A stretch of 64,000 nt of DNA, from assembly GCA_018821435.1 (NCBI GenBank), contig JAHJME010000035.1:9514-73513 (forward strand), given 5' to 3'. Source of the stretch: Alphaproteobacteria bacterium. GTDB lineage: Bacteria > Pseudomonadota > Alphaproteobacteria > Caulobacterales > Caulobacteraceae. A program made the translations under genes and the position numbers. Positions 35,659-40,591 of this stretch are shown here, piece by piece. The notes under the pieces are model-generated. The model searched no databases and was not told where the DNA came from. It worked only from the letters and a program-made list of their open reading frames with translations. Numbering within the stretch: position 1 is the stretch's first letter; each line of letters begins with the position of its first letter.

Positions 35659-37200
35659 ATGGCGGCGCGCGTGGTGACCCTGGCCTTCCGGGGCGTCGAG
35701 GCTGTGCGCGTCGATGTCCAGGTTCAGTTCACCAGCGGCGAGCAGAAATTCTTCCTGGTCGGCATGGGCGACAAGGCGGTGTCCGAGAGCCGGGAACGGG
35801 TGCGCGGCGCCTTCCAGGGCATGGGCTTGGCCCTGCCGTCGCGGCGGATCATCGCCAACCTGGCGCCCGCCGACCTGCCCAAGGAGGGCAGCCACTACGA
35901 CCTGCCCATCGCTCTGGCGATCATGGCCGGCATGGGCATCATTCCGCCTGACGCGCTTGAGGGTTGGGCCGCCGTGGGCGAGCTGGCCCTGGACGGGCGG
36001 ATCACGCCGGTGACCGGAGCGCTCCCCGCCGCCGTGGCCGCGGGCGGCCTGGGGTTGGGCCTGATCTGTCCCGAGGCCTGCGGACCCGAGGCCGCCTGGG
36101 CCGGCGACACCCGCGTGCTGGCGGCCCCGTCGCTGATCGCCCTGGTGAACCACTTCCGCGGGACTCAGATCCTGTCGCAGCCCAAGGCCGGCGACATGCT
36201 GGACGGCGAGCGCGTCCCCGACCTGCGCGACGTGAAGGGCCAGGAGAACGCCAAGCGGGCGCTGGAGATCGCCGCGGCCGGCGGCCACAACCTGTGCTTT
36301 GTCGGCCCGCCGGGCTCGGGCAAGTCGATGATGGCGGCGCGGCTGCCGGGCCTGCTGCCGCCCCTGACGCCGGGCGAGCTGCTCGAGACCTCGATGATCC
36401 ATTCGGTCGCCGGCCTGATCGCCAAGGGCCAGCTCAGCCGCGCCCGGCCGTTCCGCACGCCGCATCACTCCGCCAGCATGGCGGCGCTGACCGGCGGCGG
36501 GCTGAAGGCCAAGCCGGGCGAGGTCAGCCTGGCGCACAACGGCGTCCTGTTCCTGGACGAACTGCCGGAGTTCGGGGCCCAGGCTCTGGACAGCCTGCGC
36601 CAGCCCATCGAGACCGGCGAGGTGGTCGTGGCCCGGGCCAACGCCCACATCCGCTATCCCGCCCGCTTCCAGCTGGTGGCGGCGATGAACCCCTGCCGCT
36701 GCGGGCACGGCGGCGCCGGCCGGGGCGCCTGCGGGCGCGCGCCGCGCTGCCAGACCGACTACCAAAGCCGCATCTCGGGTCCGCTGATGGACCGCATCGA
36801 CCTGCAGGTCGAGGTGCCGCCGGTCACCGCCGCCGACATGGCCCTGCCCGCGCCGGCCGAGGGCACGGCCCAGGCTTCGGCCCGCGTGCTCACCGCCCGG
36901 GCGATGCAGGCCGAGCGGGCGGCGGGAACGGACGGCGCGCCGCTGAACGCCCTGGCGGAGGGCGACTTCCTGGAGACCATCGTCGATCTGGATCCGCCGG
37001 CTCGCGCGCTGCTGGCCAAGGCGGCGGAGCTGGGCGGCCTCTCGGCGCGCGGCTGGACCCGCACCCTGCGCCTGGCCCGCACCATCGCGGATCTGGAGGG
37101 TTCAGGCCCGGTGCGGCGCGTCCATGTGGCCGAGGCGCTGATCTATCGCCGCGTGGCGCCGGGGACGTCGTTGGGTTCGAGCGCGTCGATCTCAGCGTAG
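35659..37200 (+). CDS. comM: YifB/ComM Mg-chelatase-like AAA+ ATPase
   Basis: ESRERVR, NLAPADLPKEGSHYDLPIAL, GPPGSGKSM, PFRTPHHS, LAHNGVLFLDELPEF, RISGPLMDRIDL. Confidence 0.92.
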   Translation: MAARVVTLAFRGVEAVRVDVQVQFTSGEQKFFLVGMGDKAVSESRERVRGAFQGMGLALPSRRIIANLAPADLPKEGSHYDLPIALAIMAGMGIIPPDALEGWAAVGELALDGRITPVTGALPAAVAAGGLGLGLICPEACGPEAAWAGDTRVLAAPSLIALVNHFRGTQILSQPKAGDMLDGERVPDLRDVKGQENAKRALEIAAAGGHNLCFVGPPGSGKSMMAARLPGLLPPLTPGELLETSMIHSVAGLIAKGQLSRARPFRTPHHSASMAALTGGGLKAKPGEVSLAHNGVLFLDELPEFGAQALDSLRQPIETGEVVVARANAHIRYPARFQLVAAMNPCRCGHGGAGRGACGRAPRCQTDYQSRISGPLMDRIDLQVEVPPVTAADMALPAPAEGTAQASARVLTARAMQAERAAGTDGAPLNALAEGDFLETIVDLDPPARALLAKAAELGGLSARGWTRTLRLARTIADLEGSGPVRRVHVAEALIYRRVAPGTSLGSSASISA

Positions 37201-37616
37201 CGTTTCGGGGCGGTCAGCGAGCCGTATGCGATGGCGGCGATCACCATGTAGCTCCAGATGATGCCGGCGGTTTGATAGGCCCAACCGCTGACGCCCGCGT
37301 CTAGCGCGCGCGCAATGTGAGTGAGGACACCCAGTAGCTGAAAGCCGGCGGCGAAGAGTGGCCAGAAGCGTTCGCTACGCAGGGCAAGCACGACCAGGAT
37401 GCCCAGCAGACAGGCGTCGATTATCAGGACGGGCCATTGGATGTCTTCGCTATGCGAGCGGAACACCACAAGCGTAAGCGCCCAGGCGGCCAGGTAGACA
37501 CCGGCGGCCAGACGCTCCTGATCACGGCCCCGCCAGACGGCCAGCACGCAGGTGGCGATCACGGCCGAGGGCCAGACCCAAGGGGGTAGCTGATACAAAT
37601 CTGAGCCCTCGGTCAC
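37143..37616 (-). CDS. Hypothetical multi-pass membrane protein (start may be TTG 37598)
   Basis: About four to five hydrophobic segments, RFWPLFAAGFQLL motif. The 3' end overlaps comM convergently. Confidence 0.75.
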   Translation of the reverse strand: MTEGSDLYQLPPWVWPSAVIATCVLAVWRGRDQERLAAGVYLAAWALTLVVFRSHSEDIQWPVLIIDACLLGILVVLALRSERFWPLFAAGFQLLGVLTHIARALDAGVSGWAYQTAGIIWSYMVIAAIAYGSLTAPKRYAEIDALEPNDVPGATRR

Positions 37617-37700
37617 CCGAGAGCTCAGTCTGGCAGAGGCGCTCCGTAGTTGGAACCTCCAGCGACTCGCCGCGAAGACGAGCCGCCATCGTCGGGGCTT

Positions 37701-38063
37701 TTAGGATGCGATACGCAGGTTGCGCATGCGGACCCGCTCGGTCTCCATGCCCTGCGGCGGCGGCTTATCTCCACCTTCGCCGGCCATCTTCACCGCGCCC
37801 AGGCCGATCTGGCCCTGAACGACGCTGAGTTCCTTGTGGGTCTCGACGATGGCCCGGCGGGCTTCGGCGAGGGCCATGATGGCCTGGCTGGCGCGTTCGA
37901 CCGCATCCTGACCGATCAGCGCCGAGGCGCCGGCGGCCTTGCGAAGGTTGGGCATGACGCCCGCCAGCATCGCGGTTTTCGAGAGGGCCATGTCGATCGC
38001 GGATTCGGCTTCGAAGAGGGCGCCAGCGACTTGTTCGGCGGCCATACGGCGTTCTTTGAGCAT
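37701..38063 (-). CDS. Hypothetical alpha-helical protein, 120 aa
   Basis: GGAGAG RBS, Ala/Glu-rich helical pattern (MLKERRMAAEQVAGALFEAESAID...), Gly/Pro-rich tail. Confidence 0.8.
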   Translation of the reverse strand: MLKERRMAAEQVAGALFEAESAIDMALSKTAMLAGVMPNLRKAAGASALIGQDAVERASQAIMALAEARRAIVETHKELSVVQGQIGLGAVKMAGEGGDKPPPQGMETERVRMRNLRIAS

Positions 38064-38133
38064 GAGTTCTCTCCATGCGCGGCGTGGATCACGGCGCGCC
38101 GATAATTGTTTCAGAACAGGGTTTCTTGGCCGT

Positions 38134-38886
38134 TCAGGCCTTTAGTAAATTCGCCGCCAGATCGTTCAGATAGTGGAGCCCGGCCAACATCCCCCCGAAG
38201 GCGAGGGCGGTGACGAGGGCAATCCCCACGATCGCGCCGATCCTGAGCGCGGGGCTCAGGTCGTTTCTGCGGCTCCAAGCTCCGGCTCGCCCTTGAAGTT
38301 CTCGTCCAGGAGAACCCAGGTCAGGCAGAGGATTTCGCGGAGCACCATTTCCGGCGGCTTGAAGGGCGCCAGTTTCCGGGTAGCCGAAACCAGGTGCCGC
38401 GCCATGTCCGCCTGCGTCGACGTCGCCGCCAGATCGACGAGCTGCCGCTCGAGCTGCGTCCAGGAGAAGCCGGGAAGAAGTTCCTCCCGCTTCGCCAGAG
38501 CCGGCCAACGCGCTTCGAAGTCGTCGATCTCCCGGCGAAGGCGGAGCGCCCTCCCAATCACCGCTCTGTTCTCGAAGTTCGGTTGCTGACCCATCGGACG
38601 CCCCATCTGTTGCCGGCTCATCGAGCCAGTTCGGGGCGGGCCTGTCTGTCCTGATCGCGTCCTGTCCTGACGCGATCAGGACAGGTTTCACCTCGACGTC
38701 GCGCAGAATCTTCGCCGCCTTGAAGCGGTCGTCGACGCCCAGCTTGCGGCGGGCGCGGTCGCAGTAGGTGTCGACGGAGGTCTTCGACATGCCCAGTTCA
38801 CGGGCAATCTGCTTGGAGCTCAGATGCTGGTCCACGAGGCGCAAACAATCGCGCTCTCGTTGCGTCAAAAGCTCCACAGGGTTCAT
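38134..38886 (-). CDS. LuxR-type HTH regulator with long linker and C-terminal TM helix (start ATG 38886 or TTG 38898)
   Basis: LTQRERDCLRLV...SSKQIARELGMS..SVDTYCDRARRKLGV LuxR/GerE HTH; hydrophobic tail LRIGAIVGIALVTALAFGGMLAGL. Confidence 0.8.
   Translation of the reverse strand: MNPVELLTQRERDCLRLVDQHLSSKQIARELGMSKTSVDTYCDRARRKLGVDDRFKAAKILRDVEVKPVLIASGQDAIRTDRPAPNWLDEPATDGASDGSATELREQSGDWEGAPPSPGDRRLRSALAGSGEAGGTSSRLLLDAARAAARRSGGDVDAGGHGAAPGFGYPETGALQAAGNGAPRNPLPDLGSPGRELQGRAGAWSRRNDLSPALRIGAIVGIALVTALAFGGMLAGLHYLNDLAANLLKA
38256..38621 (-). CDS. Hypothetical protein nested within the LuxR gene (+1 frame); possible starts 38621, 38606 or 38594
   Basis: Protein-like composition. In 38281-38400, 33 of 39 codons end in G/C in this frame versus 15 of 40 in the LuxR frame. 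Confidence 0.75.
   Translation of the reverse strand: MSRQQMGRPMGQQPNFENRAVIGRALRLRREIDDFEARWPALAKREELLPGFSWTQLERQLVDLAATSTQADMARHLVSATRKLAPFKPPEMVLREILCLTWVLLDENFKGEPELGAAETT
38646..38684. repeat. Perfect 16-bp inverted repeat inside the LuxR CDS
   Basis: ctgtcctgatcgcgtc - 7 nt - gacgcgatcaggacag. Confidence 0.85.
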
Positions 38887-39049
38887 GACGCCCCCCAAAG
38901 CGCACTACGGACCACTCGCCCTAGTAAACGACGGGTTTCGCCCCGCGTCTACTTTACCGGCGGGAAAAGGCCGCTTCGCGTTGTTTTGTAGCAGCCGGCG
39001 GCCCGAGCTTGACCGACCGTTAAGTCGTTGGCCCTAAGCCTTCCGCGTC

Positions 39050-40591
39050 ATGCGCAGACCCTCTCGCCCCCTATCCGAGCGCCGGCCCAACCGCGCCCAG
39101 ATCAGCGCGGAACAGCTCGCCTCGCTCAGCCATGAATTCCGCACGCCCCTGAACGGCGTGCTGGGAATGGCCCGCCTTCTCGAAGGCACGAAGCTCACCG
39201 CCGAGCAGAAGTCCTATGTCGCGGCGCTCCACGACAGCGGCCAACACCTGTTGACCCTGGTCAACGACGTCCTCGACTACGCCAAGCTGGGCGCGGGTCG
39301 TGTCGAGCTGCATCCCGCGCCGATGGAGGTGGAGAGCCTGCTGCGCGGCGTGTCCGAGCTGCTGTCGCCCCGCGCGCGCGAAAAAGGCATCGAGATCGCC
39401 TGGGCGGCGCCCGCGACGCCGGCCGCGGTCCAGGCCGACGAGGGCCGCCTGCGCCAGATCCTGCTCAATTTCGCAGGCAACGCCGTGAAGTTCACCGAGA
39501 CGGGCGGCGTGCTTATCGCCGCCTCGGTCCCGAAGCCCGGCCGCCTGCGCCTGCGGGTCGAGGACACCGGCCCCGGGGTCTCCCAGTCCGACCGCGAACG
39601 GATCTTCGAGGAATTCGCCCAGGCCGAGGCCGCGCACGCCGACCTGGGCGGCGCGGGCCTGGGCCTGGCCATCGCGCGCCGGCTGGCGCACGCCATGGGC
39701 GGCGAGGTCGGTGTCGACACCGCGCCCGGCGGCGGCGCCTGTTTCTGGTTCGAGGCTTCCTTCCCGGCCGTCACGGCGGCGGTCCCCGCCCGCGCCCTCG
39801 AGGGCCGCATCATCGGCGTCGCCTCGCCCAACCCCATCGTCCGCGAGGCCGCCCGGCTGCAGATCGAGGCCTGTGGTGGCGAGATGGTCGCCACTTCCGC
39901 CCTGCCCGAGGCCATCGCCCGCACCAAGCCGGGCGACGTGATCCTGGTCGACGCCGCGCTGGCGACACCCAACGGCACGCTGCGCCCGCCGCTGCAACGC
40001 CACGCCATCGTGCTGCTGGCGCCGGACGAGCGCGACCGCATCGCCCGATACCGCCGCGCGGGCTTCGCCGGCTATCTGATCAAGCCGCTGCGCCGCGCCT
40101 CGCTGGCCGAGCGGGTGTTGATCGCCGCCGGCGCCGTCGCCGATCCCACCCAGCCGCTGCAGGTGGACGAACGCGCCACCAGCGCCGCCGCGCCCGGCGC
40201 ACGGATCCTGCTGGTCGAGGACAATCCGATCAACGCCCTGCTGGCCCGCGCCCTGCTGGCCCGCGAGGGCTGCGAGGTCGAGCACGCCATCGGCGGGACC
40301 GAGGCCCTGGCCGCCGTCGAGGTCGAGGCTTACGACCTGATCCTGATGGATATGCGAATGCCCGGCCTGAACGGCGAGCAGACCGCCCGCAAGATGCGCG
40401 AGAATGGCGTGAAGACCCCGATCGTGGCGCTCACCGCCAACGCCTTCGAGGACGACCGTCACGCCTGCCTGGCCGCCGGCATGGATGACTTCCTGGTCAA
40501 GCCGCTGTCGCCCGACGCGCTTCGCGCCGCCCTCACCCGCTGGACCGGGCCCGCCTTTACGAAGCCTGCGGCGCGCGCCAAGTTCGGCTGA
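39050..40591 (+). CDS. shkA: Cytoplasmic hybrid histidine kinase, ShkA-like (HisKA-HATPase-pseudoREC-REC)
   Basis: No sensor domain; SHEFRTPLNG at the N-terminus; degenerate REC1 with GYLIKPLRR; canonical REC2 (LLVEDN, LMDMRMP, ALTAN, VKP); 513 aa; next to comM/gshB as in Caulobacter. Confidence 0.8.
   Translation: MRRPSRPLSERRPNRAQISAEQLASLSHEFRTPLNGVLGMARLLEGTKLTAEQKSYVAALHDSGQHLLTLVNDVLDYAKLGAGRVELHPAPMEVESLLRGVSELLSPRAREKGIEIAWAAPATPAAVQADEGRLRQILLNFAGNAVKFTETGGVLIAASVPKPGRLRLRVEDTGPGVSQSDRERIFEEFAQAEAAHADLGGAGLGLAIARRLAHAMGGEVGVDTAPGGGACFWFEASFPAVTAAVPARALEGRIIGVASPNPIVREAARLQIEACGGEMVATSALPEAIARTKPGDVILVDAALATPNGTLRPPLQRHAIVLLAPDERDRIARYRRAGFAGYLIKPLRRASLAERVLIAAGAVADPTQPLQVDERATSAAAPGARILLVEDNPINALLARALLAREGCEVEHAIGGTEALAAVEVEAYDLILMDMRMPGLNGEQTARKMRENGVKTPIVALTANAFEDDRHACLAAGMDDFLVKPLSPDALRAALTRWTGPAFTKPAARAKFG

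Follow-up and report, generated by a model that had tools for sequence, protein, structure and literature searches.

ToxR, TcpP, CadC and BcrR are membrane-bound one-component regulators, and in the case of ToxR a small partner protein, ToxS, modulates the regulator. Same-strand genes nested within other genes are likewise familiar, for example comS in srfAB of Bacillus subtilis and Rz1 in Rz of phage lambda, where the nested gene and its host give products that share a pathway. Here we analyze a locus that may be compared with both groups. It lies in a stretch of 64,000 nucleotides from a member of the Caulobacteraceae (GenBank assembly GCA_018821435.1, contig JAHJME010000035.1; hereafter the window, with position 1 at its first letter) and consists of four same-direction minus-strand genes, which sit between yifB/comM and the gene of a ShkA-like kinase. 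We call them A, for a putative tail-anchored regulator of LuxR/GerE type; B, nested inside A; hel, for a predicted helical protein; and mem, for a predicted membrane protein.

We think it rather likely that these genes form a lineage-specific, vertically conserved operon which encodes a membrane-tethered transcription switch. The anatomy of the locus, as read from sequence, is very probably correct. The functional outline, in which mem in the membrane and hel together with B in the cytoplasm would set the activity of A, is offered as a tentative possibility.

The regulator gene and the gene nested within it

In the list of open reading frames (ORFs), A spans 38134-38898 on the minus strand (254 codons, open from TTG 38898). 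Alignments with its relatives begin near residue 4-6, and ATG 38886 has a G-rich tract ahead of it, so the gene probably starts at this ATG and encodes 250 residues (38134-38886). The predicted protein begins with a LuxR/GerE-type helix-turn-helix (HTH), continues with a conserved motif, a Gly-, Ala-, Arg- and Pro-rich tether of low complexity (~140 residues) and a juxtamembrane RNDL motif, and ends with a transmembrane (TM) helix and a tail of 16 residues. The HTH (38710-38871, minus strand; residues 10-63 of the 254-residue ORF) matches Pfam family PF00196 with 48.1 bits (cut-off 23.5; E = 9e-13), and no second domain was found in A by Pfam or NCBIfam scans. The TM helix, a putative tail anchor (38185-38235, minus strand; mean hydropathy 2.28), is flanked on its N-terminal side by Arg-rich residues and preceded by the conserved motif RRNDLSP, which overlaps the stop codon of B. 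A hydrophobic C-terminus is present in every A homologue displayed.

Gene B (38256-38594, minus strand) occupies the +1 frame of A, lies wholly inside the tether and would encode a protein of 112 residues with four helices. The listed ORF that holds it is somewhat longer (38256-38621, minus strand). The start of B is probably ATG 38594, which is conserved throughout, and not the upstream ATG 38621; in three loci a frame-B stop stands just 5´ of ATG 38594. A tract resembling a Shine-Dalgarno sequence is found at -17 to -5 of this ATG in 78 of 79 distinct upstream sequences.

For comparison we used 116 loci in which both the HTH and B are present. They comprise Phenylobacterium relatives, 18 loci from other genera of Caulobacteraceae, a paralogue, and 80 Phenylobacterium loci from a species collection; the search of this collection was made with a narrow B alignment and yielded Phenylobacterium loci only. 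Many of the loci come from metagenome-assembled genomes. Throughout, counts for the genus refer to Phenylobacterium, to which the names carried by homologues assign this genome, and counts for the family to Caulobacteraceae.

Several lines of evidence from sequence comparison and structure modelling indicate that B is a real gene. Position-specific GC content follows frame A at 38898-38640, frame B at 38630-38270 and frame A again at 38270-38150. Entropy by codon position of B, calculated over the overlap from 109 distinct sequences, is 0.66/0.48/1.01 bits, that is, lowest at the second and highest at the third position. Mean pairwise amino-acid identity in the overlap amounts to 0.70 in frame B versus 0.485 in frame A, with B being higher in 99.3% of pairs. 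The AlphaFold2 model of B, built like our other structure models on a shallow alignment (19 sequences), is a four-helix protein with a mean predicted local distance difference test score (pLDDT) of 88.2 and a predicted template modelling score (pTM) of 0.70. B is intact in 115 of the 116 loci, and its identity is 30-60% in other genera and paralogous copies. The exact 112-residue sequence is a recorded NCBI protein and the family comprises 468 clusters, every one of them named "hypothetical protein". B matches no family in Pfam, NCBIfam, PHROGs or PADLOC. Searches of the PDB gave best E-values of 0.2 for sequence profiles of B, hel and mem, and of 0.5-0.6 for Foldseek comparisons of the B and hel models, the latter being generic helical matches only.

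As DNA of 67-75% GC often contains long spurious ORFs, one might take the nested ORF for a chance open frame of GC-rich DNA that encodes nothing. A +1 frame, however, stays open across 113 codons in only 3.2% of windows in the genes of this genome, and a chance frame would hardly come with the right codon-position pattern, a confidently modelled fold and a conserved Shine-Dalgarno tract and ATG, or be conserved at the protein level in paralogues and other genera, where identity falls to 30-37%. Codon-position pattern, spread across genera, fold and identity contrast together effectively refute this explanation, and we regard its probability as negligible. By the comparisons given above, B is the most constrained sequence of the locus. 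A preliminary description, made from the letters of the window, had underrated it, although B is both the most constrained part and the part that annotation pipelines call.

The single locus with a damaged B (genome G024, loci L044/L138) carries an in-frame stop after ...REIDDF. In another locus (L061, G134:C1, ~722.8-723.5 kb) gene A contains a frameshift between HTH and B relative to a close relative. No other copies among the 116 loci are broken, and either of the two may be a sequencing error or a natural knock-out of one frame.

The question of whether A is translated through the overlap calls for a separate argument. Frame A is stop-free from the HTH through the overlap to the hydrophobic C-terminus in 115 of the 116 loci, and B stands in the +1 frame of A in every one. 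Among the 115 read-through loci, the distance from the stop of A to the true stop of B falls into ten length classes, all of them 2 mod 3. In a single genome such openness is weak evidence, since chance alone keeps a frame of A's type stop-free in 62% of the 113-codon windows taken from ordinary genes. A test at the level of individual sites is stronger. A stop in A can arise only where a codon of B ends with T and the next one begins with AA, AG or GA. At these sites T in third position was found in 0 of 2894 cases, with 64.7 predicted from genome codon usage, whereas at the remaining 9446 sites of the same B genes it reached 9.9%, 2.7 times as much as the genome would predict; both this test and the openness count were made on related sequences without phylogenetic correction, so that the counts overstate independence, and the codon usage of the null was drawn from this genome only. 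Despite the kinship of the sequences, we consider the contrast too large to dismiss.

Further, the HTH, the motif behind it and the RNDL-TM end are conserved and bear coding signatures of frame A, and no conserved start codon was found ahead of the TM segment. The A protein of the window can be aligned, from the HTH to the end of the TM helix, with proteins of Sphingomonadaceae that are encoded by single ORFs. Both frames thus appear to be maintained by selection.

Existing annotation gives another picture. B, hel and mem are all annotated in the six assemblies that we examined (gene calls from NCBI, ENA and Logan), while ~420-450 nucleotides over the HTH are uncalled (38460-38886 in the window and the equivalent stretches in L077 and L187-L192). 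Plausible A sequences from three genomes were all missing from a collection of 15 billion proteins, whereas RefSeq accessions exist for B and hel. Regulator A is systematically missed in the annotation of Caulobacteraceae, since the callers retain the nested gene. The callers might of course be right: only B, hel and mem would then be genes, and the LuxR ORF would be an artefact of high GC, a decaying remnant, or the source of separate small HTH and TM products. The uniform absence of an HTH product from the calls and of every A variant tried from the protein collection is what this explanation expects, and it can further invoke the composition of frame A, which is off-frame over the overlap, the ease with which an alternative frame of this type stays open by chance, and the frameshift of L061. 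However, it leaves several observations unaccounted for: no stop follows the HTH in 115 of 116 loci; third-position T is fully avoided where it would stop A and enriched elsewhere in B; HTH, post-HTH motif and RNDL-TM end keep the signatures of frame A; the TM segment has no conserved start codon of its own; and the single-ORF homologues of Sphingomonadaceae share both ends. We find it quite unlikely that the callers are right, and we retain A as a gene that runs through B.

Just after the HTH, still inside A, we found a conserved nucleotide element (38644-38683, minus strand) of the form TGTCCTGA-N5-TCAGGACA-N8-TCAGGACAGAC, in which a 9-mer is present twice in direct and once in inverted orientation. 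The element of this genome is extended into a perfect 16-bp hairpin with a strong predicted fold, and a second predicted stem pairs the G-run before the ATG of B. The core of the element is invariant in 79 distinct Phenylobacterium sequences despite the rare codons TCA, GGA, AGG and ACA that it contains. In one clade a compensatory CCCGA/TCGGG change leaves the inverted repeat intact, and other genera have the direct repeats TCGGGAC or TCGGAAC, present twice, 16 nucleotides apart and changing together. Because the repeats stand in different codon phases, the constraint acts on nucleotides and not on amino acids. The palindrome occurs once in the genome, which rules out a regulon-wide operator and points to local control. 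The HTH could use the element as an operator or internal-promoter site; equally, the element could form an mRNA structure that ties translation of B to the ribosomes on A.

The position of the element, exactly at the switch of coding from A to B, invites one more explanation. A and B might be a single gene in which a programmed +1 frameshift near the hairpin leads ribosomes into B, and perhaps back into A at the stop of B, so that HTH-B or HTH-B-TM fusions are produced. Besides the strong conserved hairpin and the AGGA repeats, which resemble a Shine-Dalgarno sequence, the fixed relative frames in all loci agree with such a mechanism. Nevertheless, the element itself contains a TGA in frame B (CTGATC), and in three genomes a further stop precedes the ATG of B, which moreover has a conserved ATG and Shine-Dalgarno tract of its own. 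The element has neither a slippery heptamer nor a 0-frame stop, its inverted copy is missing from other genera, and the TM helix could be reached only by two shifts. If ribosomes had left frame A, the avoidance of A stops over the whole overlap would be needless. We hold the frameshift to be very unlikely and prefer two separately initiated genes.

Conservation and origin of the module

About 20 of 24 Phenylobacterium genomes have the four parts in an identical order, within the fixed arrangement gshB-comM-[mem-hel-A/B]-kinase-ampG. The 18 loci from other genera of Caulobacteraceae have the same layout in other, unrelated contexts. B was found in 61 of 201 genomes of the family, representing 15 of 27 genera, and in 109 of 121 Caulobacter genomes. 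Outside Phenylobacterium the module is often present in 2-3 copies per genome; paralogues keep the layout, and in every copy examined B is nested inside an A gene.

In a class-wide sample of 351 alphaproteobacterial genomes, hel was detected only in Caulobacteraceae, apart from a single genome that belongs to another family. When the order of that genome was followed up, hel was present in 19 of 151 genomes, and all 19 belong to one family, Sphingomonadaceae judging by protein names. In these bacteria A is a plain ORF of 150-210 codons, which encodes the HTH, a tether of 50-90 residues with normal composition, a PFPT..RP-x-ND motif and the TM helix, and is followed by hel and mem. Neither a B-like sequence nor a conserved +1 ORF was found in A of Sphingomonadaceae.

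Recurrence of the same parts in the same order in Phenylobacterium and other Caulobacteraceae, and of the trio in Sphingomonadaceae, places the arrangement far from chance. It also bears out the view of the preliminary description that the genes form one module: A, hel and mem co-occur in two families of Alphaproteobacteria, and B, where present, is nested in A without exception. The condition named there as a refutation, a lack of co-occurrence in other genomes, is thereby decisively contradicted.

Since A, hel and mem exist in Sphingomonadaceae without B, we regard B as a novelty of Caulobacteraceae. The simplest history, judging from these comparisons, starts with an ancestral A-hel-mem trio; B was then probably born in Caulobacteraceae by overprinting, inside a lengthened tether of A. 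B ends exactly where the conserved RNDL motif of A begins, with its stop codon inside the motif, as one would expect if B were restricted to the stretch of its host that is free of constraint. A more far-reaching version, to which we give an even chance, is that B, after it was born in this way, became the dominant constraint on the DNA and was locked in its host through divergence at the family level and repeated duplication because the two products cooperate. One possibility is that B is made from the same mRNA as A and controls the HTH of its host.

In two unrelated genera of the family the module is adjoined by a gene for an XRE-family HTH protein with a similar motif, QQVQKYERG-NRVSAS (L158:1604-2038 and L072:5115-5489). 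In Caulobacter sp. 73W this gene is followed by cheW and cheR. The association may be a coincidence.

The genes hel and mem and their surroundings

Gene hel (37701-38063, minus strand, as in the ORF list) is preceded by a GGAGAG Shine-Dalgarno sequence before its ATG and encodes a presumably cytoplasmic helical hairpin of 120 residues. According to its model, two long antiparallel helices (residues 2-44 and 52-85) are followed by a disordered Gly/Pro tail, and pLDDT exceeds 95 over residues 1-85. The same 85 residues are conserved; the tail is variable except for a near-invariant K-P, usually (D/E)KP. The family comprises 1440 clusters at 50% identity and matches nothing in Pfam, NCBIfam, PHROGs or PADLOC. 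We found no signal peptide, leader, double-glycine leader or hydrophobic N-terminus in hel. Among the 150 best family representatives, the C-terminus is -AA in 85 (57%) and -A in 115. ClpX recognizes ssrA-like C-terminal -AA, and by analogy the ends of the family suggest regulated proteolysis; for the hel of the window itself, the analogy is only suggestive.

The genome that contains the window has a second hel-mem pair, without A or B, outside the window (L046:3285-4176; contig C22, ~118.8-119.7 kb). It lies between serC and a divergent gene for a membrane-bound hybrid histidine kinase and is kept in seven other Phenylobacterium genomes, so both hel-mem modules of Phenylobacterium face a hybrid kinase. 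In one genome of Caulobacteraceae two tandem hel genes and one mem follow 3´ of a receiver-domain gene (L169/L172, G041:C3:48061-48771).

Gene mem was listed as an ORF at 37143-37616 (minus strand), open from GTG 37616. Since its homologues begin at query residues 7-10 as "MY...", the start is probably TTG 37598, which gives ~151 residues (37143-37598). The product is predicted to be an inner-membrane protein with 5 TM segments, of which 4 are strongly and 1 moderately hydrophobic. An Asp in TM3 is invariant, and a His in TM4 and the cytoplasmic loops WRGGxPER and RxxRxW are conserved. Searches of Pfam, NCBIfam, PHROGs and PADLOC gave no relatives of mem, and it bears no signature of ATP-binding cassette (ABC) proteins, transporters, the major facilitator superfamily (MFS), peptidases or defence proteins.

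Between hel and mem lies a GC-rich 12-bp hairpin and, directly after it, a T-rich run (37601-37628, minus strand), which resembles a terminator or attenuator. The probable TTG start of mem falls within the T-run and a GAGGG within the 3´ arm of the hairpin; the Shine-Dalgarno sequence of mem may be sequestered. Most orthologous loci, including those of other genera, have an equivalent hairpin at this position. Judging from this arrangement, mem is probably expressed at a level different from that of the upstream genes.

On the plus strand, the module is flanked by the gene of a YifB/ComM-family ATPase (35659-37200), assigned by family models, and by that of a soluble hybrid histidine kinase (39050-40591) with HisKA and HATPase domains, an unassigned middle part of ~150 residues and a C-terminal receiver. 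This is the architecture of ShkA, but the name shkA is unconfirmed, as no curated model matched at its cut-off. GC content is 0.61-0.68 over 37200-39000 and 0.73-0.77 in comM and the kinase gene. We reject recent horizontal transfer as a source of the low GC, as synteny is fixed across Phenylobacterium.

As to structure, the preliminary description holds up well. The four ORFs were all found again where it had placed them, and the locally lower GC was reproduced. The regulator indeed has an N-terminal HTH, no other domain that we could find and one C-terminal hydrophobic helix; the 120-residue helical protein with a Gly/Pro tail is modelled as a two-helix hairpin with a disordered tail; and the membrane protein, described as having 4-5 TM segments, shows the four strong and one moderate segments given above.

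Its functional proposal, a self-contained membrane-sensing circuit, fared unevenly. That a membrane-anchored regulator works with dedicated partners is reasonable. The other part took hel for a secreted peptide precursor and mem for its exporter, receptor or immunity protein, and for this part we see no support. The Gly/Pro-rich tail of hel, the adjoining membrane protein and regulator, and the co-occurrence of the genes would all suit peptide signalling. However, besides having no signal or leader peptide, hel has no Cys/Ser/Thr-rich core; what is conserved in it is the folded hairpin of 85 residues and not the tail, and its C-termini, mostly Ala-Ala in the family, resemble tags for cytoplasmic proteases. 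As an exporter, mem would be a protein of ~150 residues with 5 TM segments and no ABC, peptidase or MFS feature, and no modification enzymes are encoded nearby. We therefore consider a peptide-signalling circuit highly improbable. A promoter region shared with the ShkA-like kinase gene, also part of that proposal, applies to Phenylobacterium only, as other genera place the module in unrelated contexts.

The features of hel and mem might be read in another way, namely as parts of an accessory stress, defence or toxin-antitoxin-like cassette. The small mem protein would then act as an effector that damages membranes and would be neutralized by labile hel or B, with A as a local regulator. GC content below that of the flanks, a patchy and lineage-restricted spread with 2-3 copies per Caulobacter genome and neighbourhoods that differ between genera, the protease-tag-like end of hel, and a small multi-pass membrane protein behind a terminator-like hairpin are all consistent with it. 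Against it, B, hel and mem match no PADLOC or PHROG family (A gave generic HTH matches only in these scans). Recent mobility is contradicted by the fixed position between comM and the kinase gene across Phenylobacterium; no integrase or mobile-element genes are adjacent, and the second hel-mem pair keeps its place at the serC locus just as strictly. We regard the cassette as unlikely.

A presumed membrane switch and its described counterparts

We return to the reading of the locus as a vertically conserved operon for a membrane-tethered switch. In the model that we propose, A would be anchored to the inner membrane, where mem would probably accompany it. Only ~16 residues follow the TM helix of A, and any sensing must therefore fall to its partners. 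In the cytoplasm, hel and B would act as modulators of the HTH of A, with hel possibly being an unstable, protease-labile inhibitor or adaptor. The 9-mer repeats would provide local control: the HTH might bind them as an auto-operator or internal promoter site, or they might fold in the mRNA into a hairpin through which translation of B depends on that of A. As for the tether, its DNA would now be dictated by B, and selection on A in this region would only keep the frame free of stops.

Several points weigh against this reading. Because B, hel and mem are without relatives of known function, every functional step in the model is inferred. Translation of both frames, A and B, rests on evolutionary signatures, and among these the openness of A has the high chance rate given above, and the site-level test the kinship and single-genome null mentioned with it. 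Sphingomonadaceae could be without B through loss rather than through its later birth in Caulobacteraceae. The inverted copy of the 9-mer is confined to Phenylobacterium, and because the element is invariant, covariation cannot separate an RNA structure from a DNA site. Finally, in the subclade of the window hel ends with -IAS or -VAS and not with -AA.

If our reading is true, a whole family of membrane-anchored regulators is invisible in current annotations of Caulobacteraceae, and regulon and comparative studies in Caulobacter, a major model genus of cell biology, would overlook it. The locus would also define a tail-anchored LuxR architecture and, with B, hel and mem, three uncharacterized protein families, which can all be tested in the tractable Caulobacter. 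As a case of same-strand dual coding, long (~340 nucleotides) and kept across a whole family, it would be unusually clean for bacteria, and the separate signatures in each frame, together with a sister lineage lacking the inner gene, make it a good system for the study of gene birth by overprinting.

The closest counterpart is the homologous trio of Sphingomonadaceae, for example in Sphingomonas sp. S1-29 (WP_265549285.1, "helix-turn-helix transcriptional regulator", 200 residues; WP_265549286.1, hypothetical protein). It shares the N-terminal LuxR HTH, the tether, the juxtamembrane RP-x-ND motif and the C-terminal TM helix, followed by hel and mem, and is uncharacterized too. Unlike in the window, its tether is shorter (~50-90 residues) and of ordinary composition, B is absent in any frame, and the regulator is annotated normally. 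Among better described proteins, GerE (PF00196) resembles A in having neither a receiver nor an autoinducer-binding domain. The usual LuxR/GerE protein, however, carries its HTH at the C-terminus behind a regulatory domain, whereas in A the HTH is N-terminal and followed by a long disordered tether and a membrane anchor. We know of no described tail-anchored LuxR-type regulator, and a literature search for one, or for a nested gene of this kind in Caulobacter, returned nothing relevant.

With regulators of the ToxR/CadC type, A has in common a cytoplasmic N-terminal DNA-binding domain and a membrane span, and small partners are possible in both. ToxR, TcpP, CadC and BcrR differ from it in that they combine OmpR-type or XRE-type domains with a periplasmic or multi-pass sensing part, whereas the domain of A is of GerE type and its single TM helix leaves almost nothing beyond the membrane. 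The pair of B and A resembles comS/srfAB and Rz1/Rz in that the inner gene is fully enclosed by the outer one on the same strand, out of frame and with a start of its own. It differs from them because the host here is a transcription factor, the overlap is confined to an unstructured tether, and the passenger is more constrained than the host. Moreover, the nesting of B in A is kept across a bacterial family and in all paralogues examined, and it is the passenger, rather than the host, that gene callers pick.

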